DNA from: a bacterium
Lineage (GTDB): Bacteria; SZUA-182; DTGQ01
Reading direction: 5' to 3'
Assembly: GCA_040752695.1 (NCBI GenBank)
Contig: JBFMGO010000126.1
Coordinates: forward strand, 1-16,527
Length of the DNA stretch: 16,527 bases
Shown: positions 457 through 14,480 of the stretch, one piece after another
Layout of the letters: each line of letters starts with the position of its first letter
Position numbering within the stretch: the first letter of the stretch is position 1
The notes under the pieces: generated by a model
Told to the model about the DNA's origin: nothing
Databases searched by the model: none
Seen by the model: the letters and a program-made list of their open reading frames with translations, nothing else
Translations under genes and position numbers: made by a program

Positions 457-1380
457 ATGTTCAATCCTTCAAATCTTCCATCGAAAAATTTTTTTCCCAT
501 GCCTCTCCTGTTTATCATATTTTTATTACTCCAGGCTTATCAGGCAATTGTTTTTGCTGCGCCACCAGATGTCTATAAGGTAGGAAATCTTGATGTTTTG
601 AAAATCAATGTAGCAGGAAGGCCGGCTATAAACGAGGTGTTTCCAGTCTCTTCTGATGGGACCATCAGTTTCCCTTGGTTGGGCAATGTATGGGTGGCCG
701 GGCTGACGGTGAAAGAGATAGAGGAAAAGATAACGGGTCTTTTAGGCCAAGATTACCTGGTGGACCCGAAGGTATACGTAAGCATGGAAAAGTATAACAG
801 CCAGAAGGTGATCGTATGGGGGGAAGTCAAATCACCGGGGACCTATGTTCTGACCGGCAGGGCCACCCTTCTTGAAATCGTAGCCGAAGCTGGCGGGGTA
901 ACGGAAAAGGCGGGCAGGAGGATCATGCTCTTTCGCCATGCCCTGGATGTGGTTGCCGGCATTGATGCTTCGGAGGCTGTCGAGGGAGTGATGAAAAAAG
1001 AGGGCCCGACGGTCATCGATATTGACCGGTTAGTGAAGGGGAGCGGCCTTGAGGGTGACCTGACCGTGTCGTCGGGTGATGTAATCGTGGTGGAGGCACA
1101 AAAGGATTCTGACATCAACGAGCAGCGCGTTTATATTACGGGCTGTCTGAGTAATCCTGGTGCCTATGATTATCAGAATGGTTTAACTGCCTTGAGTCTT
1201 TGCATCATAGCCGGAGGATTCACCAATCGTGCCGCCCCTCAGAAAGCTACCTTGGTCAGGAAGGTAAAGGGGGAAGATAAGGTGTATCAGATTGACCTTG
1301 ACAGGGTGAAGCGCGGCAAAGCCATTGACTTCGAGCTCAAGCCGGGGGATCGGCTGAATGTACCGGAATCTTTCTGGTGA
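457..1380 (+). CDS. wza: OPX-family polysaccharide export protein (Poly_export + 2 SLBB domains), short periplasmic type
   Basis: Poly_export signature YKVGNLDVLKINV...DGTISFPWLGNVWVAGLT...YLVDPKV. SLBB repeats VWGEVKSPGTY and ITGCLSNPGAY. Ends LKPGDRLNVPESFW. N-terminal hydrophobic signal ending VFA-A. The start could be the second Met (499). Confidence 0.9.
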   Translation: MFNPSNLPSKNFFPMPLLFIIFLLLQAYQAIVFAAPPDVYKVGNLDVLKINVAGRPAINEVFPVSSDGTISFPWLGNVWVAGLTVKEIEEKITGLLGQDYLVDPKVYVSMEKYNSQKVIVWGEVKSPGTYVLTGRATLLEIVAEAGGVTEKAGRRIMLFRHALDVVAGIDASEAVEGVMKKEGPTVIDIDRLVKGSGLEGDLTVSSGDVIVVEAQKDSDINEQRVYITGCLSNPGAYDYQNGLTALSLCIIAGGFTNRAAPQKATLVRKVKGEDKVYQIDLDRVKRGKAIDFELKPGDRLNVPESFW

Positions 1381-1406
1381 TGCGGGCACAGGGCAGGGGA
1401 GAGAGT

Positions 1407-4301
1407 ATGGAGCAAAGCAAAAATGATCACCCTCTCGATGACAGAGAGCAGATCAGTGAAGTTCATCTTCTGGATTATGTAACCCTTATCCGAAAGCGGA
1501 AATGGGTTCTCATTGCCTGTGTTTTGATCTGTGTGTCTGCGGCTATTGTTGTCAATCAGGTTATTGTTCCTCAGTATAAGGCCGAATGTCAGATCCTTAT
1601 CGATAAGGAAACGAACAGATCTGTGGTTAGCGGCGAGAACATGGAGTACCTGTATTACGAGACAGCCCTGTCGGAAGAATTGAGCTTCAACACTCAGCTT
1701 AAGATCATTACCAGCTACGAGGTATTGAAGCAGGTCATCGACAGGTTGAAGCTGAAGGAGCGCGAAAAGAGCAAAGAGTCAAAGGAGTTCACCGAAGGTG
1801 CCGGATTTGCATTCCATTTCAGGACTGCCGTCAGAAAAAACATTGAAAACCTGAGGGAAAGCATGAAAGGCCTGAGTGAGTTTCTCACCGGCACTGCAGG
1901 AGAAAAGCCTCATGGATCGAGGGCGATTGCAGGGGGAGGGGCCAAAAGTCTGGCCGAGGATCTGCCTGACAGCGAGATGGCGGCCCTGGTATCCACTCTG
2001 GCAGACAGGATAGAGGTTCAGCCCGTCAAGGATACCCGGCTGGTGAATATTTCGGCCAGCGATGAGGACCCCGTCTGGGCTGCTGCCATAGCCAATGCAG
2101 TGGTTAAGAGCTATATCGACTATGATACCTCCTTACGGTATAAGTCGGTCAGGGAATTTGTGAACTGGATCTCGGCCCAGATCGAGGAGATGAAGCAGAA
2201 GATAGACGCTGCCGAGAAAAAGTTTTTCGATTTTAAAACCAATAACAGGATCTATTCGATCCGTGAGAAAAAGGACATTGTCACGGGAAAAGTCACAGAC
2301 CTGAATAATGCCTATATCAGGATTCATACCGAGAGGATGGGGATAAAGGCGAAAATCCTGGAGCTGGAAAACCTGCTCAACCGCAGGAAAGACAAAACAC
2401 TGGGCAAAGACCTCATAGACGATCAGTTGCTTTTGGATCTCAGCAAAGAGCTTTCAAGAGAGAATATCAGGCTGGACGATTTGAAGCGGGATTACAAAGA
2501 CAAACACCCCGAGGTTGTGGATGCGGAGAGCAAGATCGAAATCCTGAAAAAAGAATTCACCCACACGCTGGATAAATCCCTGCAAGGGCTCCTCCTGCAG
2601 GATTCTGTCCTCAAATCCCGTGAGGACACGATCATGGCCGAAATAGCCAAACTGGAAGAGGCAGCCATTGCCGATAACAAAATCGAGGCCGCCTACTCGA
2701 TGCTCGAGCGGGAAGTCGAAACCAATAAGGTCCTCTATGACGTCATGCTCAATAAGCTCAAAGAAACCAAGATAAACGAAACCATGAAAAAAAGCAATAT
2801 CAGGGTAACCGAGCCCGCGATCATCCCCGAGTCCCCTCAAGGCAGTCAGAAAAAAATCAATATCGCCCTGGGTATCTTACTGGGCCTTTTGGGGGGCCTT
2901 GGTCTGACCCTTTCGATCGAGTATTTCGAGACCGGCATAAAGAGCGAGGAGGATGTAAAACGCTACCTGCAACTGCCGGTGATGGGCATCATCCCCGAGG
3001 ATGACAGTAAAGCGGCCAGGGGAACCAAAACGACCGATGCGGCTGATTCGATTAAGACTGCCGCTCACAGGAAAAAGCCGGTGAAATTTCCCCTTTTGAG
3101 CAACCAACACTGCTCGACGGCTTTTTGCGAAGCGTACAGGAGTCTGAGGACCAACCTTACCTATTCTCTGGGGAGCGGCACATCGAGTAAATCCATCCTG
3201 GTCACCAGCAGCATCCCCCAGGAGGGCAAATCAACTACCGCCTCGAATCTGGCCCTCACCCTGGCCCAGGCTGGCGAGCGGATCATTTTGATCGATACCG
3301 ACCTGAGAGTGCCCTCTATCCATAAACGATTCCACATGGACCACAAAAGAAAGGGACTGACCAATATCCTGGTCGACCTGTTTAATACTCCCCTGCATGA
3401 AGGCACCCTCGACGAATACAGTCTTGGCGACATCATAAGCCTGATCAATATCCAGGGCAGAAGCGGCACCCTCACCATATCGGACCGCTCGGAGCACTTT
3501 TCGCTCTTCTTCAAAGAGGGGGAACTCATCGATGCCCAGACCAAAAACCGCCCGGAAGAAAAAAGACTGGGCTCTCTGCTGACAGCCAGTCAGAAGATTA
3601 CCGAAGAGCAAAAGAAAAATGCCCTTAAGGAGCAGGATTACTACCATGAACGGCTGGGCTTAATTCTCCTGAACATGAACCTTTTGACTCCCGATGATTT
3701 GAGAGGCCCTGTCACCCTCCATTTTTCTTCGACCATGAACAGAATACTGAGCTTAAAGACAGGATACTTCAGCTTCAAAGACGGATGCCCCCAACAGACC
3801 GATACCGGTGATTACCTGAAGGATAAATTCCCCTCATGGCAAAAGACCTTCCAGATGCAGGCAGCTCCTTTTCTGGAACACACTATCTTTTCCATCCTTC
3901 AGGACTCTCCCCTGGAGAATCTGAAAGTGCTGACCTCAGGCCCCCTGCCTTCAAACCCTTCCGAATTGCTCAGTTCCCGGCGCATGAAGGCACTTATGCA
4001 TATTCTCAAAGGAAGATTCGACTACCTTGTCCTGGATTCACCCCCCATCAATTCCGTAACCGATGCTTCCATCCTGGCCTCACTGGTCGATGGGGTCATC
4101 CAGGTGTTGCACGTGGGCCATACCCATCGCAAAACCATCATCAAAGCCAAAGAACAACTCGACAGCATCGGAGCCAGAATCTTCGGCGTGGTCATGAACC
4201 GCCTCGACCTGAAAAAAGAGGGATACTACTACTCCTATCACTACTACCAGTACGGCACTACCCTTGGCCAAAAAGAGGAAAAAATAACCACACCCACTTA
4301 A
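1407..4301 (+). CDS. wzc: Wzc/GumC-like polysaccharide co-polymerase with BY tyrosine kinase domain and an inserted DUF4388/MshEN-like module
   Basis: Wzz-like N-terminus (HLLDYVTLIRKRKW + TM), periplasmic coiled coils, HPEV motif and a second TM. EAYRSLRTNL, Walker A SSIPQEGKST (3207-3236), Walker A' IDTDLRVP (3291-3314), Walker B YLVLDSPP (4023-4046) and Tyr cluster GYYYSYHYYQY (4221-4253). ATG 1407 follows GGGGAGAG. GTG 1377 or ATG 1380, overlapping the wza stop, are alternative starts. Confidence 0.93.
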   Translation: MEQSKNDHPLDDREQISEVHLLDYVTLIRKRKWVLIACVLICVSAAIVVNQVIVPQYKAECQILIDKETNRSVVSGENMEYLYYETALSEELSFNTQLKIITSYEVLKQVIDRLKLKEREKSKESKEFTEGAGFAFHFRTAVRKNIENLRESMKGLSEFLTGTAGEKPHGSRAIAGGGAKSLAEDLPDSEMAALVSTLADRIEVQPVKDTRLVNISASDEDPVWAAAIANAVVKSYIDYDTSLRYKSVREFVNWISAQIEEMKQKIDAAEKKFFDFKTNNRIYSIREKKDIVTGKVTDLNNAYIRIHTERMGIKAKILELENLLNRRKDKTLGKDLIDDQLLLDLSKELSRENIRLDDLKRDYKDKHPEVVDAESKIEILKKEFTHTLDKSLQGLLLQDSVLKSREDTIMAEIAKLEEAAIADNKIEAAYSMLEREVETNKVLYDVMLNKLKETKINETMKKSNIRVTEPAIIPESPQGSQKKINIALGILLGLLGGLGLTLSIEYFETGIKSEEDVKRYLQLPVMGIIPEDDSKAARGTKTTDAADSIKTAAHRKKPVKFPLLSNQHCSTAFCEAYRSLRTNLTYSLGSGTSSKSILVTSSIPQEGKSTTASNLALTLAQAGERIILIDTDLRVPSIHKRFHMDHKRKGLTNILVDLFNTPLHEGTLDEYSLGDIISLINIQGRSGTLTISDRSEHFSLFFKEGELIDAQTKNRPEEKRLGSLLTASQKITEEQKKNALKEQDYYHERLGLILLNMNLLTPDDLRGPVTLHFSSTMNRILSLKTGYFSFKDGCPQQTDTGDYLKDKFPSWQKTFQMQAAPFLEHTIFSILQDSPLENLKVLTSGPLPSNPSELLSSRRMKALMHILKGRFDYLVLDSPPINSVTDASILASLVDGVIQVLHVGHTHRKTIIKAKEQLDSIGARIFGVVMNRLDLKKEGYYYSYHYYQYGTTLGQKEEKITTPT

Positions 4302-4675: not shown

Positions 4676-5533
4676 ATGAATAAGCCGTTATTTTTTAAAA
4701 ATAAGGAGAATGGTTATAACCTTTTTGGTTTTCTCTTGCAACCAGAAAGAGAAACGACAAATAACCGAAGGGGTATTGTATTTTGTGATTCGATCGGGAC
4801 TGAGAAACTCTATAGCCATAGAGTCCTGGTTAATTTTGCCAGACTCCTTCGTGCACAAGGTTATCATGTATTCCTATTTGATTATTATGGAAATGGCGAC
4901 AGTGAGGGAGACTTTGAAAATACAAAATTGGATACGTGCTTATCCGATACGAAAGCAGCAATTGAATTCTTAATGGAAGAAGCAAAGATAGATGAACTCG
5001 GCTTATTAGGGGTAAGATTAGGAGCTGTTTTTGCTTCCTTGCTTGCGGCAAAAGAAAAAATAATAAAAAATCTTATCTTATGGTCGCCGATTATAGACGT
5101 TGGAAAGTATATTAATGATTCTCTCAGGGAGAATATAAACTTACAACTGAACATTTATAAAAAGATACAATTTAACCGGATGCAGTTAATAGAGCAAATA
5201 ATGAATAATATTCCTGTGGAGATCCAAGGCTATGTAATATCCAAAGATTTTTATAATAGTTTTTCCCAGGTTGATCTGAAAAAAATACAGTTGCAATTCG
5301 ATACCAGAACCTTAGTGATAGAGATACAAAAAATGACAACTTCTGTAAGTAAAGAGATTACCATGCTTTTTAAAGATAATAATCAATGCTTCAGAACAGT
5401 AGTGCCGGAGGATCCCTTCTGGATCTACAGAGGGGCAAACCACAAATATGTAACCAAATCGAAGGTCCTTTTTGAAAGGACACTTAGCTGGCTAGAGGTG
5501 TTCGATGGTAATGGAAGAGCCTGTAAGGTTTAA
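4676..5533 (+). CDS. Alpha/beta-hydrolase-fold protein, similar to exosortase A system-associated hydrolase 2
   Basis: FDYYGNGDSEGDF motif, nucleophile elbow GVRLG (Arg in place of Ser), LILWSPI and C-terminal DPFW. Confidence 0.8.
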   Translation: MNKPLFFKNKENGYNLFGFLLQPERETTNNRRGIVFCDSIGTEKLYSHRVLVNFARLLRAQGYHVFLFDYYGNGDSEGDFENTKLDTCLSDTKAAIEFLMEEAKIDELGLLGVRLGAVFASLLAAKEKIIKNLILWSPIIDVGKYINDSLRENINLQLNIYKKIQFNRMQLIEQIMNNIPVEIQGYVISKDFYNSFSQVDLKKIQLQFDTRTLVIEIQKMTTSVSKEITMLFKDNNQCFRTVVPEDPFWIYRGANHKYVTKSKVLFERTLSWLEVFDGNGRACKV

Positions 5534-6467
5534 AAACAGAGCAAAGTACGAGCTTTACGGAATAGCTCATATCCCATCTAAAAACGAAGTGGAGAAAAAA
5601 GTCGGACTTATTTTTTTAAACGCGGGGCTCGGGGATAGAATTGCCTTCAACAGGCTGCATGTTACTCTGAGCAGGAGACTGGCTCAAAACGGCTTTTATT
5701 CCTTGCGCTTCGACCCCGCTGGTCTTGGAGAAAGCGAAGGGGATATAGAAGAAGCTATGCTTTTTGATCTCTATGCTTCAATCAATAAGGGACGATTTAT
5801 TCATGACGTGATAGACGCTGTCGAATTTTTTACCAGTAAGTATGGGCTGGAAGAAATTGTCCTGGCTGGATTATGTGGTGGAGCAACAACAGCTTTACTT
5901 GCAGCGCCACACTGTGGAAAAGTAAGTTCACTTATCCTTATGGGATTTCCCGTCCTTTTTAGTCCTCTCGATGCAAAAAAAGGTGTTCTGGATCCTACAT
6001 CCGCTCAGTATCTATTGAAAAATCAGCTTATCCGGCTTATAAATTTTAAGATACCGATCCTAAGCTCCTGGAATACCATACTCGGAAAAATCAAAAACGA
6101 CGGATTATTTGAACTGACAGCTAACTTATTGAAATCCTGGTTGACGGTCTTCAAAAAATCGCATAATAGTTTCCATCCTAACTTTAACAAATTGTCCTTG
6201 GATACACTTGAAAGAGTGAGAGGAAGTATAGATATAAACTTCATTTTCGGAGAATGCGATATGTGGAAACTATACTTTGAGGAGGAATTTGAGCAAAAAG
6301 TAGGCAAGGATTGTGAAAATAAATATTTTTATAGAAAATTTATTATTAAGAATGCAAATCACACCTTTACATTCCGAGAATGCCACAATGAATTAATTGA
6401 TGTCATTCAATATGTCATAAGTAATAAGATTAATTCTCAATTAAGGAAAATATCATATCCTCTATGA
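5505..6467 (+). CDS. Alpha/beta-hydrolase-fold protein, similar to exosortase A system-associated hydrolase 1
   Basis: LRFDPAGLGESEG motif, nucleophile elbow GLCGG (Cys), FIFGECD and ANHTF (candidate catalytic His). Overlaps the end of the upstream gene. The start could be ATG 5511. Confidence 0.8.
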   Translation: MVMEEPVRFKNRAKYELYGIAHIPSKNEVEKKVGLIFLNAGLGDRIAFNRLHVTLSRRLAQNGFYSLRFDPAGLGESEGDIEEAMLFDLYASINKGRFIHDVIDAVEFFTSKYGLEEIVLAGLCGGATTALLAAPHCGKVSSLILMGFPVLFSPLDAKKGVLDPTSAQYLLKNQLIRLINFKIPILSSWNTILGKIKNDGLFELTANLLKSWLTVFKKSHNSFHPNFNKLSLDTLERVRGSIDINFIFGECDMWKLYFEEEFEQKVGKDCENKYFYRKFIIKNANHTFTFRECHNELIDVIQYVISNKINSQLRKISYPL

Positions 6468-6569: not shown

Positions 6570-8303
6570 ATGATTAAAGTAGCTGTAGCAGGGGCAGGTT
6601 ATTGGGGAAAGAATCTGGTACGGAATTTTTATGAACTTGGCGTATTAAAGTCAGTCTGCGATAGACAGCAGGGCTTAAGCCAGCAATACCTGAAATACCC
6701 CGGCCTTATCTTTACTGACGATCTCCAGTCAATTATGGATGATCAGGAATTAGCGGCTGTGGTCATTGCCACGCCAGCACAGACCCATTATTCCCTGGTT
6801 CGTCAGGCCCTTCTTGCGGGTAAGCATGTTTTTGTGGAAAAACCTCTGGCCCTGGATGTAGCCCATGGCGAGGAGTTAGTCTTACTAGCTGCCCAAAAGG
6901 GGCTGATTCTCATGGTTGGGCATATCCTTCAGTATCATCCGGCTGTTCTGAAGCTTAAGCAGCTTATCGACCAGGGAGAGCTGGGCCAGATCGGGTATGT
7001 TTATTCCAACAGGCTCAACATGAGTACAAACCGATCCGAGGAGAATATTCTCTTTAGCTTTGCTCCTCATGATATCTCTGCCATTCTTATGCTCTTGAAC
7101 GAATTACCGGTGAGCATCCAGGTCAGCGGAGGGGAATACCTGCAAAAGAAGGTGACGAATGTGACGTTTACCTTTATGCAGTTTAATAGTGGCGTCGATG
7201 CACACATTTTTGTCAATTGGCTTCATCCCTACAAGGAACAAAAGCTGATAGTTATCGGTGATAGGCAAATGGCTGTCTTTGATGATATCAGTGAGGAGAA
7301 ACTTTTCCTATACCCTCACACTATCGAATGGAAAGATAGACTGCCTGTAGCCAGCAAGGTCCAGGCCATGCCTGTTCCCTTCCAGATGGAAGAGCCTTTA
7401 CGTGCCGAATGCCAGCACTTTTTGACCTGCATCCAGGAGAAAAAGCAGCCTCGCACCAATGGCCAGGAGGGCTTACGGGTTCTCAGGGTACTTCAGGCCT
7501 GCCAGAAATCCCTTGACCATCAGGGAGAGAAAATTGCCATTGCGGGTCAGTCGACCCGATTGAATTCGATTTCAGGAACGTTTTCAGTCTCTTATATCCA
7601 TCCCACGGTGGAAATTGATAAAGGGTGCATTATCGGGGAGGGAACAACGATCTGGCATTTTTCCCATGTTATGAAGGAAAGTATCATTGGCCGCGACTGC
7701 CGTATAGGTCAGTATGTGGTCATCGGTCCTAAAGTCACTATCGGAAATGGATGCAAGATCCAAAACAACGTCTCGATCTATGAAGGGGTAACCCTGGAAG
7801 ATGATGTCTTTTGCGGCACCTCCATGGTCTTCACCAATGTTTTTAATCCCAGGGCAGACATGCCCGGGATGGGTGAATTACGTCCTACTCTGATCAAAAG
7901 GGGTGCTACCATCGGCGCCAATGCCACTATCATCTGTGGCCATACAATCGGCCAATACGCCTTTATCGGCGCTGGTGCGGTGGTGACTCACGATGTTCCG
8001 GATCATGCACTGATGGTAGGGAACCCGGCCAGAATCGCTGGCTGGATGTGCACCTGTGGTAATAAGATAAAGGTAGGGGGGCAGGAGGGGCACTGCCCGA
8101 TCTGCAAAAAAGTATATATCATGGATAATGGCCGGATCAGGGGGAACCCAAAGTTAAGTCCTGAGGCAGGACCTAAGGGAAGTCCTGAGAGAAATCCTGA
8201 AGTAAGTCCTGAAGTAAGTCCTGGAATAACAATAGAAACCCTTTTCAGCGATTCTGAAATTGACCAGCCTGCGAACAAAGAATCCACCTCAAAGAGGTAC
8301 TGA
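6570..8303 (+). CDS. Fusion of a Gfo/Idh/MocA oxidoreductase (WbpB/WlbA-like) and a hexapeptide-repeat N-acetyltransferase (WbpD/WlbB-like), 2,3-diacetamido-uronic acid pathway
   Basis: N-half has GAGYWG, HVFVEKP and FAPHD. C-half has YIHPT...IWHFSHV...IGQ...KIQNNVSIYEGVTLED...MVFTNVFNPR...IGANATIICG...GNPAR and a Cys motif WMCTCG...CPIC. Confidence 0.88.
   Translation: MIKVAVAGAGYWGKNLVRNFYELGVLKSVCDRQQGLSQQYLKYPGLIFTDDLQSIMDDQELAAVVIATPAQTHYSLVRQALLAGKHVFVEKPLALDVAHGEELVLLAAQKGLILMVGHILQYHPAVLKLKQLIDQGELGQIGYVYSNRLNMSTNRSEENILFSFAPHDISAILMLLNELPVSIQVSGGEYLQKKVTNVTFTFMQFNSGVDAHIFVNWLHPYKEQKLIVIGDRQMAVFDDISEEKLFLYPHTIEWKDRLPVASKVQAMPVPFQMEEPLRAECQHFLTCIQEKKQPRTNGQEGLRVLRVLQACQKSLDHQGEKIAIAGQSTRLNSISGTFSVSYIHPTVEIDKGCIIGEGTTIWHFSHVMKESIIGRDCRIGQYVVIGPKVTIGNGCKIQNNVSIYEGVTLEDDVFCGTSMVFTNVFNPRADMPGMGELRPTLIKRGATIGANATIICGHTIGQYAFIGAGAVVTHDVPDHALMVGNPARIAGWMCTCGNKIKVGGQEGHCPICKKVYIMDNGRIRGNPKLSPEAGPKGSPERNPEVSPEVSPGITIETLFSDSEIDQPANKESTSKRY
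8148..8231 (+). repeat. Seven degenerate in-frame 12-bp tandem repeats (consensus about CCTGARGTAAGT) encoding P-x-x-S-type tetrapeptides
   Basis: ccaaagttaagt|cctgaggcagga|cctaagggaagt|cctgagagaaat|cctgaagtaagt|cctgaagtaagt|cctggaataaca, translating PKLS PEAG PKGS PERN PEVS PEVS PGIT. Confidence 0.85.
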
Positions 8304-8428: not shown

Positions 8429-9784
8429 CTGGTAGCGCGTGATTCACTGATAGCTTTATTAGCCCGCCTATCAATGTTCGCGACCGCATTTGTCGGAAAT
8501 ATGATCCTGGCCCGGTGTCTTGGTGCGTCAGGAATGGGAATCTGGTCAATTATGGTCACTTTTCTGTCAATGATACTCCTCGTGTGCGGACCAGGTATTG
8601 CCTCGGCAAACGTATATTACGTTGCCCAGGGAAAACATACGGCTGGAGAGTCCTGGGCTGTAACGCTGCTGTTAGGCACCGGATTCGGAATAGTGGGGGT
8701 ATGTACGGGGAAGGTCTTGCTTTGGCTCAGATTTAAGAGCATAGCAGGGATTGAAGATCAGAGGTTGATTTTACTTCTTCTTCTATCCCTTCCTCTGCTT
8801 TATATAACAGATTGGGGATATAAAATTATCCTTGGGATGGACCGCATCGGATTAATGAACCTCTTAGGTTTAATTTCTAATATTTTTCACCTGGGCTTAA
8901 TAATACTGTTCGTCGAAATTATGAAGATCGGGTTATGGGGAGTGGTAACTGCTTATCTTGGCATGTATCTTTCCTCTACCCTGATGCTGATAGTAACATT
9001 CCTCATACTCATGCGACCAAAGGAATTTCGGCTGAGATGGAAAACGATACAATTGGATGTCGTGTATGGAGTGAAGATATACTTCGGTAAATTGTCGGAG
9101 TGGACCAATAACCGTATCGACCTGCTCATAGCACCATTATTTTTAGACAGCAAACAGATCGGTCTTTATGCTGTTGTAGTAGCGGTCACTGAGAAATTAT
9201 GGCTTATTCCCAGCGCGATATCTCAGGCTGTTTTTCCCAAGATATCAGCGGACATAAAAGGGCGGCCTGAATTGGTAGGGCGGGCATGTCGAACCTCCAT
9301 AATCATTATGCTTCCGATTATGCTTTTATTGATCGCTGGAGGATGGTGGGTGATACCTGCCTTATTTGGCAGTGAATTTCAAGGATCTTATCTGCCCATG
9401 CTCGCTATCCTGCCGGGCATCTTTATGCTTGGGATCAGCCAAATATTATCAGCCAGCCTGGCTGCGACCAACCATCCCGCAACGATATCTGCCGTTGTTA
9501 CGGTTGCCTCTGTAATCAATGTGATTTTGAATTTCTTACTCATCCCACGTATGGGAATTACCGGATGTTCGCTGGCCAGCACTGGTTCTTACACATTTCA
9601 GGCTGTGGCATTGCTTTGGTATTACTGCCAGTATACAGGTGTGCGCCCCGTATCGCTGATAAGAGTCCAATTCAGTGACCTGTTAATCTTGCTGAAACAA
9701 AGCAGGCAAATAATTGCTAATGGTTCGTATGAGAGGCAAGAATCTCTTCGCTTCAAATTATTTAATAAAATCTGCTCTCGATAG
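8429..9784 (+). CDS. wzx: Wzx-type polysaccharide flippase (MOP superfamily)
   Basis: Many TM segments, with motifs ILARCLGASGMG, RIDLLIAPLFL...IGLYAVV, AVFPKIS, LFGSEF and LNFLLIPRMGITG. The ORF track starts at ATG 8474, but the frame is open from 8417 and CTG 8429 lies 7 nt after AGGAG. The start is uncertain. Confidence 0.88.
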   Translation: MVARDSLIALLARLSMFATAFVGNMILARCLGASGMGIWSIMVTFLSMILLVCGPGIASANVYYVAQGKHTAGESWAVTLLLGTGFGIVGVCTGKVLLWLRFKSIAGIEDQRLILLLLLSLPLLYITDWGYKIILGMDRIGLMNLLGLISNIFHLGLIILFVEIMKIGLWGVVTAYLGMYLSSTLMLIVTFLILMRPKEFRLRWKTIQLDVVYGVKIYFGKLSEWTNNRIDLLIAPLFLDSKQIGLYAVVVAVTEKLWLIPSAISQAVFPKISADIKGRPELVGRACRTSIIIMLPIMLLLIAGGWWVIPALFGSEFQGSYLPMLAILPGIFMLGISQILSASLAATNHPATISAVVTVASVINVILNFLLIPRMGITGCSLASTGSYTFQAVALLWYYCQYTGVRPVSLIRVQFSDLLILLKQSRQIIANGSYERQESLRFKLFNKICSR

Positions 9785-9874: not shown

Positions 9875-10969
9875 ATGATTAGTACATACCTGACTACTCT
9901 TTATTTTGTAAGCCTCGTGACAGCTCAGATCAAGGGAGGACCAGGCCATTTACCTGTAGTTTTTATATCATATCTATGCATAATACATCTCATATTCTGT
10001 AAGGAGCAGATTAACTTAGACAGGGATACGTCAATACCGCAACTCATTCTCATTTTAGCTGCCATATTGTCTCTCACTTTTCACTTCAATATAAAATGTT
10101 TGACATACATAATTGGATTCATCATAAATATCATTATTTATAATAATTTATTCAAACAAATTTCATTAAAACACTTTCAAATAGTATTTTTCTGCCTATT
10201 ATTAACGATATTTTATCCGGCCTATAATGGAAACCAATTATCTTCCATATACGGAAACTCCAATTCGCTGGGAATTATTTTATTATGTTTATTATATTTG
10301 TTATTTTTACTTTATAAAAATAACTATTTTATCCTCTTTATCTGCATCGTATTATCTTATGTCTTATTCCTTACAGGAAATAGATCCGGGATAATTAGCT
10401 TTGCTACTTTTTTTATTTTTTATTTTATTTATAAAAAATTTGGTAAAATATATACTTATATATTATTTTTAGTATTTTTAGTCGGTATAATTTCCTATTT
10501 AACTTATTGTGCATTTGCTACTAAAAATTTACTATATCAACTAAATATTACCTTTTACCAAAGAAATTTTCTCTACGCCTCCCAAAGAGATACGATCATT
10601 AAACATACAATTCCCAATATCGTAAAGAAACCATTCGGCTTAGGATTTGGTTTTAGTAGTAAAGATGCTATGCAAGGGTTGGGAGTAGATGTGACATCTC
10701 CCCACAATGCTTATTTAAAAATGGCCTTGGAAGGGGGCTGGCTCTTTCTTATTGCGTATATCTTACTCATTTTACAGGCATTGAGAAAAGCTGAGAATCC
10801 CGTAACAGTATCAATGCTCATTGCATTCAATATAAGGGTATTTTTTGATATAGCAACTCCTTTTGGGTATAGCATTATTTCTGCTTTGCTAATCGCGCCT
10901 TATTATATTGAAAAAGGCCTGAAACATCAAAAACACTTTAACCGACTGAAAATGAGATCTTTGCCTTGA
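9875..10969 (+). CDS. wzy: Wzy-like polymerase / O-antigen ligase family membrane protein
   Basis: Very AT-rich and highly hydrophobic. Motifs GNSNSLG, LTGNRSG, PFGLGFG and PHNAYLKMALEGG are typical of the Wzy_C/O-antigen ligase family. It lies next to wzx. Confidence 0.75.
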   Translation: MISTYLTTLYFVSLVTAQIKGGPGHLPVVFISYLCIIHLIFCKEQINLDRDTSIPQLILILAAILSLTFHFNIKCLTYIIGFIINIIIYNNLFKQISLKHFQIVFFCLLLTIFYPAYNGNQLSSIYGNSNSLGIILLCLLYLLFLLYKNNYFILFICIVLSYVLFLTGNRSGIISFATFFIFYFIYKKFGKIYTYILFLVFLVGIISYLTYCAFATKNLLYQLNITFYQRNFLYASQRDTIIKHTIPNIVKKPFGLGFGFSSKDAMQGLGVDVTSPHNAYLKMALEGGWLFLIAYILLILQALRKAENPVTVSMLIAFNIRVFFDIATPFGYSIISALLIAPYYIEKGLKHQKHFNRLKMRSLP

Positions 10970-13772: not shown

Positions 13773-13880
13773 GAGCCTCTATGAGCTGCTCCTGTTACCT
13801 TTTGGGGGTTCGATTGATAACCTGCTGGCAGCTCTTATGCTCATGTGCGGCTCACGCAACAGTCAGGAGGTAATTATTCG

Positions 13881-14480
13881 ATGTATCGTAAATCTGGAAA
13901 GCGGATGCTCGATCTGTCTCTTGCCATACCATCATTATTTCTCCTTTCTCCATTACTAGCGTTATTGGCGATACTTGTCTGTATAAAACATGGGGCACCT
14001 GTTCTTTTCTTTCAACAACGACCTGGATTGAACGGGCAGCCTTTCAAGCTGTATAAATTTCGAACCATGACAGATGCTCGCGATGCCAAGGGCAACTTAT
14101 TGCCTGACGAGAAACGGTTATCCCCCTTTGGCCAATTCCTGCGCAGTACCAGTCTTGATGAATTGCCTGAATTATTTAATATTATCAAAGGGGACATGAG
14201 CCTTGTCGGGCCACGGCCGCTGCTTATGGCTTATCTTGACCGCTATACTCCCGAACAGGCGAGAAGACATGAGATTAAGCCGGGTATCACTGGCTGGGCA
14301 CAGATCAATGGTCGCAATTCCATCCGCTGGGAGGAAAAGTTCAAGTTTGATGTATGGTATGTAGACAACTATTCCCTATGGTTAGACCTGAAGATTATCG
14401 CCATGACTGTCGGGAAGATTCTCAAACGTGAGGGCATCAGTCAAGCTGGGCACGCCACGATGGAGGAGTTTAAAGGGTAA
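13881..14480 (+). CDS. pglC: Monotopic phosphoglycosyl transferase (Bac_transf; PglC/EpsL-like initiating transferase)
   Basis: KRMLD, a hydrophobic helix with LLSP, QQRPG...YKFRTM, RSTSLDELP, GDMSLVGPRP and KPGITGWAQINGRN. ATG 13881 follows AGGAGG (13865-13870) and is preferred over GTG 13845. Confidence 0.9.
   Translation: MYRKSGKRMLDLSLAIPSLFLLSPLLALLAILVCIKHGAPVLFFQQRPGLNGQPFKLYKFRTMTDARDAKGNLLPDEKRLSPFGQFLRSTSLDELPELFNIIKGDMSLVGPRPLLMAYLDRYTPEQARRHEIKPGITGWAQINGRNSIRWEEKFKFDVWYVDNYSLWLDLKIIAMTVGKILKREGISQAGHATMEEFKG

Follow-up and report, generated by a model that had tools for sequence, protein, structure and literature searches.

A PATAN domain with an MshEN-type c-di-GMP motif nested in the catalytic core of a Wzc tyrosine kinase: a candidate regulatory module of polysaccharide export

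The window analysed here, contig JBFMGO010000126.1 of genome assembly GCA_040752695.1 (16,527 nucleotides, forward strand), comes from a bacterium placed in SZUA-182 (DTGQ01) and contains a polysaccharide gene cluster recognisable from its Pfam matches: a wza-like gene lies upstream of the gene for a co-polymerase and bacterial tyrosine kinase (BY-kinase) of the Wzc type, and wzx-like, wzy-like, glycosyltransferase and priming transferase genes belong to the same cluster. The kinase gene is the subject of this report, as a PATAN (DUF4388) domain lies inside its catalytic domain and bears two 24-residue motifs resembling the site at which the ATPase MshE binds cyclic di-GMP (c-di-GMP). An initial annotation had pointed to these motifs and proposed that c-di-GMP may bind Wzc directly and switch polysaccharide polymerisation or export.

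The kinase, its nested domain and the motif

Residues are numbered from the GTG at 1377 (974 residues); the recorded start is the ATG at 1407 (964 residues, P0003). The features of the gene are the following.

1377..4301, + strand: Wzc-type co-polymerase plus BY tyrosine kinase (Pfam Wzz, GNVR and ParA/AAA_31/CbiA; TIGR01007)
3129..3149, + strand: EX2RX2R oligomerisation motif (E585, R588, R591), intact (sequence motif)
3210..3236, + strand: Walker A with catalytic Lys618 (alignment, motif)
3282..3308, + strand: Walker A' (D640, D642; alignment, motif)
3378..3875, + strand: insert of about 166 residues (L668-L833), ends approximate (gap in ordinary kinases; two-piece CapAB match)
3399..3794, + strand: DUF4388/PATAN (PatA_N) domain (PF14332, residues 675-806, E 1.1e-19)
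3549..3563, + strand: acidic lead-in Arg-Pro-Glu-Glu-Lys (R725-K729; model helix from P726)
3564..3635, + strand: motif copy 1 (R730-Q753), with R1, L2, G3, L21 and Q24 kept and Leu17 replaced by Lys746
3636..3650, + strand: five-residue linker, variable in sequence
3651..3722, + strand: motif copy 2 (R759-H782), with R1, L2, G3 and L17 kept, Leu21 replaced by Val779 and Gln24 by His782
4023..4046, + strand: Walker B (D887, P889, P890; alignment, motif)
4221..4256, + strand: C-terminal tyrosine cluster, 7 Tyr (sequence)

On its motifs, its match to a curated model, its predicted fold and its gene cluster, the window protein is a BY-kinase of the Wzc type (PCP-2a). The catalytic motifs are all in place, together with the EX2RX2R motif that plays a role in BY-kinase oligomerisation (PMC9800525), and TIGR01007 matches at 192.3 bits (cut-off 108.05); the full-length model TIGR01005 stays below its cut-off (241.5 against 411.7 bits). 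An AlphaFold model of residues 567-974, built with 24 sequences, reaches a predicted local distance difference test (pLDDT) score of 78 and a predicted template modelling score of 0.75 and retains the BY-kinase fold. Fold searches with this model returned CapAB at the top (Z 28.3, root mean square deviation 2.5, 215 residues aligned) and Wzc 3la6 at Z 27.7 and a deviation of 2.2; these matches are filled by the kinase domain and thus speak for the kinase fold, not for the insert alone.

Walker A' and Walker B flank the insert, at a place where all four ordinary kinases of the alignment (A1) are gapped. A frameshift or an assembly artefact was rejected as its origin, since the frame is open throughout, the layout recurs in at least 45 protein clusters and the G+C content of the insert (0.49) is like that of the rest of the kinase gene (0.50). 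The match to PF14332 scores 71.1 bits against a cut-off of 25 and covers profile positions 1-98 of 122; the model carries the elements of the domain in order, with strand 109-111, helix 117-127, strands within 131-156, a helical clip at 160-225 and strand 231-236 (pLDDT 74-89), and this order recurs in a control model of the standalone PATAN protein P0163. By sequence and model, the 24+5+24 motif is the four-helix alpha-clip, of the MshEN_N type, of a complete PATAN/DUF4388 domain; the helical clip of PATAN has been described as common to the start of pilus and type II secretion system (T2SS) ATPases (10.1101/2021.06.11.447907). The motif is thus inside Wzc as initially annotated, and the unit to be considered is the whole PATAN domain, which that annotation had missed. 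The chain re-enters the kinase fold at E847, aligned with residue 602 of E. coli Wzc, and plain kinases, read 11 residues back, place the insert just before I592; the insertion site would correspond to the loop L-alpha5 of that protein.

The translation first given for 3564-3722 is exact and in frame within the open reading frame 1377-4301, the codons singled out there are right (3564 AGA, Arg; 3633 CAG, Gln; 3651 CGG, Arg), and the residues named as kept in the two copies are kept, Gly10 being absent from both (Gln and Asn in its place). Twelve positions contact c-di-GMP in MshE, namely 1, 2, 3, 17, 21 and 24 of each copy (PMC5013675), and ten of them are kept in the window motif if Val is counted as hydrophobic. 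Three departures had gone unmentioned: Leu17 to Lys (codon 3612), Leu21 to Val (3711) and Gln24 to His (3720). Copy 2 also holds Gly777-Pro778, a trait of the kinase-borne copies. Among 2,876,967 windows of 53 residues drawn from the six-frame open reading frames of the genome, only 8 score at least 10/12 in the strict 24+5+24 register, each of them MshEN-like by eye, and none does so in either of two shuffles; a chance motif was rejected on these counts. NCBIfam NF053729 places the window protein at the border of its cut-off of 38 (37.4 bits by hmmscan, 42.1 bits in the genome search), and when a profile of 10 inserts was run against the PDB, all 14 matches at E up to 10 were PilF, PilB or MshE (MshE 5htl, E 1.1e-5). 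On such sequence comparisons the motif is homologous to the c-di-GMP site of MshE.

The site is nevertheless to be called MshEN-type and not a proven receptor, as its sequence departs in two respects from a strict MshEN_N receptor. The third-position Gly of both Arg-Leu-Gly ends is present (R730-G732, R759-G761); of the two leucine clusters (positions 17, 21 and 31; 2, 46 and 50), four of the six residues are Leu, with Lys at 17 and Val at 50; and of the terminal glutamines, Q753 is present and position 53 is His782. No match to PF05157, the MshEN_C subdomain, was obtained in the window protein at E up to 0.1. The absence of Gly10 was rejected as a sign of a dead site, since only 32/81 of the otherwise near-perfect standalone relatives have the second-turn Gly.

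Relatives of the nested module and genes around the kinase

The genome yields only two PF14332 matches and both are kinases. The second, on contig C12, is a split form: on the minus strand (locus L001, 4346-8091; G000:C12) a wza-like gene, a 518-residue co-polymerase and a separate 422-residue kinase bearing the insert are found, with a stop/start overlap. Its motif scores above the NF053729 cut-off of 38 (45.9 bits, and 49.7 bits in the genome search). The third Arg of its EX2RX2R motif is replaced by Tyr, and an epimerase gene, a B12 radical SAM-like gene and a gene for an AMP-binding enzyme lie downstream. A frameshift was rejected as the origin of this split form on account of the stop/start overlap and of nine other clusters of the split type. 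The same genome also has plain Wzc-like kinases.

The nested layout extends well beyond this genome. In a first protein search, 11 of the 120 matches listed (1727 in all) have PF14332, the window protein included, and a search with the split paralogue returned 12 matches of which 10, itself included, are split kinases with PF14332. Across the phylum, an insert profile matches 7/20 genomes, 6/20 over its full length at E below 1e-72 (this genome included), and 4/6 of these carriers hold two insert-bearing copies. From a library clustered at 50% identity, the best 150 of 9223 matches were examined (144/150 span the clip and were aligned): they comprise 45 kinases with the insert between their halves, 9 partial kinases and 96 other proteins. 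The layout thus occurs in at least 45 clusters at 50% identity, which is a lower bound. Among these relatives one cluster is named Syntrophobacteraceae and one protein Deltaproteobacteria; the nearest Atlas cluster, with PF14332 in 100% of its 77 members, is mostly from Thermodesulfobacteriota. Atlas clusters of 412-485 residues combining PF14332 with CbiA/ParA have 77 (Thermodesulfobacteriota), 73 (Ca. Eiseniibacteriota) and 66 members (Acidobacteriota, PF14332 in 50%), the last two counted by domain content and not by nested layout. When the full-length protein was compared with the Atlas, the feature search gave ordinary Wzc clusters and the structure search gave one cluster of PATAN-kinases. 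An alignment-based contig scan found 5 loci; a single-sequence scan gave 312 pattern matches, none of them confirmed.

Two trees bear on the ancestry of the module. An unrooted tree was built from 107 inserts, of which 63 are kinase-borne, 35 come from the 82 standalone proteins and 9 from others. On it, a branch with 99% support sets 43 non-kinase rows apart from every kinase row and from P0273; the latter is a 147-residue fragment that was then left out of the standalone counts, so that 81 remain. This division fits one origin of the kinase-borne module. A second tree, built from the kinase halves of 47 insert-bearing and 18 plain proteins, intermingles the two kinds; a single clean clade of insert-bearing kinases was rejected on this basis, and the state of the insert needs three changes, at least two of them forced by starred branches. 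This tree leaves out 9/10 plain paralogues of the same genome and 2/19 other controls, and its controls are biased towards the window kinase; it suggests that loss or module exchange of the insert occurred, or else it lacks resolution.

Two groups of relatives differ from the window lineage. A starred clade of 23 insert-bearing kinases (P0153, P0166 and 21 others) displays the opposite erosion, with Gln24 in 4/23 and Leu17 and Gln53 in 23/23; position 30 is never Arg or Lys and is mostly Pro. In the 20 members with both kinase halves EX2RX2R is absent and most tails have few Tyr, and these proteins are possibly non-ring kinases or pseudo-kinases. The standalone PATAN family (P0158, P0163 and about 80 others) consists of proteins mostly of about 400-430 residues with an N-terminal PATAN domain, a near-perfect MshEN motif and a predicted membrane helix; a weak resemblance of the C-terminus to T2SS protein G was seen in 3/7 of those scanned. 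Judged by their sequences, these standalone proteins are strong c-di-GMP receptor candidates.

The other assigned genes of the cluster in the window are these.

457..1380, + strand: Wza/OPX-type polysaccharide export protein (Pfam Poly_export E 1e-21, two SLBB domains)
8474..9784, + strand: Wzx-type flippase, same cluster as the kinase (Polysacc_synt_3 E 9e-12)
9875..10969, + strand: Wzy-type polymerase candidate (Wzy_C E 1e-12)
13845..14480, + strand: priming sugar transferase (Bac_transf E 9e-65)

The first possible start of the kinase gene overlaps the stop of the wza-like gene by 4 bases. Two overlapping alpha/beta hydrolase genes (4676-6467) encode proteins nearest to exosortase A system hydrolases 2 and 1, their matches to TIGR03101 and TIGR03100 both being below cut-off. 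The G+C content is 0.36-0.38 in the hydrolase genes and 0.31 in the wzy-like gene, compared with 0.50 in wza-wzc; the cluster is a mosaic. At 6570-8303 a Gfo/Idh/MocA oxidoreductase is fused to a hexapeptide acetyltransferase, with a short Pro-Glu-rich repeat near the C-terminus; we take this protein to be WbpB/WbpD-like. A fusion akin to it also lies downstream of the kinase in locus L021. The region upstream of the wza-like gene (1-456) is very A+T-rich; Rfam at its gathering score gave no match in the whole window, this region included, and hence no c-di-GMP riboswitch. The sole match to the low-molecular-weight phosphatase family in the genome lies on another contig (G000:C13:56142-56537), and none was seen in the window.

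Ligand binding, a possible mechanism and its rivals

In the set of 24 near sequences, two of them near-duplicates, position 1 is Arg or Lys in 24/24 and position 30 in 22/24, and Gly3, Gln24 and Gly32 are kept in 20/24, 22/24 and 23/24, respectively. The conservation of the Arg-Leu-Gly and Gln residues, which the initial annotation had named as a test of its proposal, thus holds for copy 1 and for the Arg-Leu-Gly of copy 2 and does not hold for the last Gln, found in only 2/24. Counted on a kinase-half tree of these 24 near relatives, the 12 contact positions underwent a mean of 3.0 changes against 6.55 for 29 other non-core positions (nominal p 0.0014), and position 53 is His in 22/24 with 2 changes, a residue held rather than drifting. 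Among the standalone relatives 57/81 have all 12 contacts under the strict count, and since their motif is near-perfect the inserted module would descend from a probable binder; the kinase-borne representatives with all 12 number 1/53 under the strict count, and 5/53 if the first position may also be Lys, Leu or Pro, the wider choice that PilF GSPII-B and -C allow.

The behaviour of MshE variants gives some measure of what the substitutions may cost. c-di-GMP continues to stabilise the L25A variant, altered at position 17, by 9 C; affinity falls about 12-fold (11.8) in Q61A and 4-fold in L29V; the damaging changes G11L and G40I fall at the positions of the two glycines kept here, G732 and G761. 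Isolated MshEN_N binds c-di-GMP at 0.35 uM; the MshEN_N of a CheA protein, although it carries four changes, still does so at 2.6 uM (all PMC5013675). The genome gives 14 GGDEF and 18 NF053729 matches, and GGDEF occurs in 5/5 other carrier genomes examined. It is quite probable, judging from these sequences, that at least some members of the family bind c-di-GMP. More tentatively, with odds slightly short of even, the window copy itself is proposed to act as a module gated by c-di-GMP on a mobile loop of the kinase.

Polymer output is set by a cycle in which BY-kinases pass from a ring, where tyrosine tails are phosphorylated in trans, to monomers and back (PMC9800525). The parts of E. coli Wzc that move in an open/closed change tied to nucleotide exchange include helix alpha4 and the loop L-alpha5 (I592) (PMC11206214). 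In the proposed mechanism, c-di-GMP would stack, as it does in MshE, on the Arg-Leu-Gly at either end; the place of Leu17 would be taken by the aliphatic portion of Lys746 and that of the last Gln by His782. Given these two substitutions, the affinity would be modest, micromolar or weaker. For binding, helix 1 would have to give up its additional first turn, an unwinding known from PilF GSPII-B, and this would pull on the PATAN core. The counterpart of L-alpha5, a loop that moves together with helix alpha4, would be the anchor of this core. Through it, a ligand-driven change of the clip could displace the phosphorylation cycle between ring and monomers, and the shift could in turn tune polysaccharide length and export. 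By analogy with other systems, more polymer would be expected at high c-di-GMP. More broadly, there may be a wide subfamily of BY-kinases with a c-di-GMP-gated PATAN domain in this mobile loop, of which the window protein would be a working member with an altered Lys17/His53 pocket, a proposal held with confidence slightly short of even.

A number of observations weigh against ligand binding by the clip. The contacts are eroded in the kinase-borne copies relative to the standalone ones (Gly3 41/53 versus 79/81, Leu17 37/53 versus 80/81, Gln24 25/53 versus 79/81, Gln53 31/53 versus 75/81, both Gln together 11/53 versus 73/81), while most structural core positions do not differ; the kinase set is the more divergent, with 33% versus 54% identity beyond the clip, and part of the erosion is due to this. 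In the near set the residue at position 17 is hydrophobic in only 2/24, with 9 changes, and the scarcity of the last Gln, noted above, belongs here too. With three contacts lost in the window copy (Lys746, Val779, His782), stacking the factors known from MshE (about 12 for the Gln and, by symmetry, about 4 for Leu to Val) would bring the affinity to tens of micromolar, and the cellular range of c-di-GMP, 0.05-10 uM (PMC5013675), is below this estimate. Where MshE carries a basic patch (PMC5013675), the residues leading into the motif are acidic instead, with a mean net charge of -0.96 across the near set. Helix 1 of the model extends by one extra turn through the first Arg-Leu-Gly to P726, and in the control model of P0163, a standalone protein with a perfect motif, it breaks at the Arg; this contrast amounts to a single residue in models without ligand and carries little weight. 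In PilF, a stable extension of the helix blocks GSPII-A even with its consensus restored, and an unstable one unwinds in GSPII-B (PMC12002112). Residues outside the contacts (R725, P726, N766, N768, G777, P778, L781) are as conserved as the contacts, so that conservation alone does not single out ligand binding: R725 and P726 are present in 24/24 of the near set, this Pro is found in 45/53 kinase-borne versus 7/81 standalone copies, and the Gly and Pro at the end of the clip in 42/53 and 39/53 versus 4/81 and 0/81. A key Gly is lost in some relatives, and both are lost in P0009. GGDEF is common anyway (8/14 control genomes), and the literature search turned up no binding measurement on a BY-kinase or on a PATAN clip.

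Much of this would be expected if the insert were instead a protein-docking PATAN domain that places the Wzc ring beside a partner such as the PilB/PilC motor of type IV pili, a phosphatase or another PATAN protein, the clip having lost any useful affinity for c-di-GMP in this lineage. The sole PATAN function tested so far is of this kind, namely binding of PilB1 and PilC and self-association in Synechocystis (10.1101/2021.06.11.447907), and the loss of polar contacts with retention of the core, the new conserved surface residues of the kinase-borne copies (P726, G777, P778), the acidic lead-in and the extended helix 1 all suit a docking surface, as does the presence in the genome of several MshEN proteins of 580-640 residues, the size of PilB. 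Docking accounts less well for the conservation of Arg/Lys1, Gly3, Gln24, Arg/Lys30 and Gly32 in the near set; moreover, no pilus gene was seen beside the kinase, either in the window or among the 30 open reading frames scanned from 7 related loci, and the only PF14332 matches of the genome are the two kinases. This explanation, the main rival, is possible, if on the doubtful side, and docking and c-di-GMP binding are compatible with each other and not exclusive.

There are two further explanations. The insert could be an old passenger, retained for the sake of kinase-domain folding and without any signalling function in this copy: the interleaving of insert-bearing and plain kinases on the kinase tree fits repeated loss, and plain Wzc-like kinases exist in the same genome, but the module is of full length, at the same site and under strong constraint in at least 45 clusters at 50% identity, and two copies are maintained in 4/6 carrier genomes, which makes a mere passenger improbable. 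Alternatively, the clip could bind another nucleotide (e.g., 3'3'-cyclic GMP-AMP, cGAMP, or one guanine half), the fixed His53 (22/24, 2 changes) and the relaxed Leu17 (9 changes) marking a changed specificity. Leu17 is part of the first guanine pocket in MshE (PMC5013675) and MshEN binds cGAMP weakly, but both Arg-Leu-Gly ends, the readers of guanine O6/N7, are kept, and a change of ligand is very unlikely. The reading tentatively retained here is that of a PATAN clip which gates the kinase through c-di-GMP.

Significance and comparison with known systems

If c-di-GMP binding by the nested clip were confirmed, the second messenger would directly control the phosphorylation timer of Wzc and thus the length and export of Wzx/Wzy polysaccharides; the PATAN alpha-clip would itself be a c-di-GMP receptor, providing a ligand for the PATAN domain, and the kinase would be an example of an inserted domain steering the open/closed cycle of a BY-kinase. 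The family offers a natural series, from perfect motifs (P0142) through the window lineage, with Leu17 and the last Gln lost, to the clade with the opposite losses. The soluble split kinases of 390-460 residues make the question directly testable; the window copy is not the best member for this, because its site is eroded.

The window kinase shares with E. coli Wzc/Etk, S. aureus CapAB and V. cholerae VpsO the Wzz-type periplasmic part, the Walker A, A' and B motifs, EX2RX2R, the tyrosine cluster, the fold (Z 24.6-28.3) and the position after a wza-like gene; it differs from them in having a 166-residue domain of a regulatory type inside the catalytic domain. In a BY-kinase review (PMC9800525) the term c-di-GMP does not occur. 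With the N domain of MshE and GSPII-A/B/C of Thermus thermophilus PilF, the clip shares two 24-residue motifs, a five-residue linker, four helices and 10/12 contacts; unlike these, it lacks MshEN_C, carries Lys17, Val50 and His53 and has Gly-Pro in its last helix, and its acidic, helical lead-in resembles non-binding GSPII-A or apo GSPII-B. The whole domain, with its alpha-clip insertion, is like that of cyanobacterial PatA-type and standalone PATAN proteins. These domains are, however, usually N-terminal or fused to REC, whereas the window copy is nested in an enzyme, and the nearest standalone relatives (mostly about 400-430 residues) have the better-kept motif.

Direct control of synthase-type polysaccharides by c-di-GMP is established for BcsA, Alg44 and PelD. 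A closer parallel is E. coli NfrB, a GT2-MshEN exopolysaccharide synthase for which direct c-di-GMP control is proven with a dissociation constant of about 1 uM (PMC8669469). NfrB likewise uses an MshEN motif for direct control of polysaccharide production, but in a synthase pathway and with a fully conserved, C-terminal MshEN, whereas the window protein is the co-polymerase kinase of a Wzx/Wzy pathway. The idea that Myxococcus SopA is a DUF4388-MshEN protein proved wrong (PMC11580455).

The initial annotation knew of no case of c-di-GMP control acting through a BY-kinase. This stands insofar as the literature search found no binding-tested case for Wzc, the kinase of the much more frequent Wzx/Wzy route. 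Wang et al. 2016 (PMC5013675) had, however, already predicted a link of this kind for Methylobacillus EpsG, a proposed chain-length tyrosine kinase that they list, with its 'MshEN_N - AAA_31' architecture (TIGR03029), among predicted c-di-GMP binders. No follow-up of this prediction was found in the literature, nor any description of a PATAN-nested BY-kinase, although Makarova et al. 2006 may list the architecture and most subscription journals lie outside the coverage of the search. The EpsG prediction is thus the nearest precedent: a connection between c-di-GMP and BY-kinases is not unprecedented, and it is the nested layout that is undescribed in the literature searched. EpsG and the window protein alike combine, in a single chain, an MshEN_N clip with a chain-length tyrosine kinase encoded in an exopolysaccharide cluster. 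The window protein is not EpsG itself, which was rejected because TIGR03029 scores 114.9 bits against a cut-off of 313.8 and because the clip is internal, within PATAN. In EpsG, known from beta- and gammaproteobacteria, a bare clip precedes the kinase at its N-terminal side, whereas in the window protein a whole PATAN domain lies between Walker A' and Walker B, and the nested family, unlike EpsG, comes in fused (about 900-1000 residues) and split (about 390-460 residues) forms.

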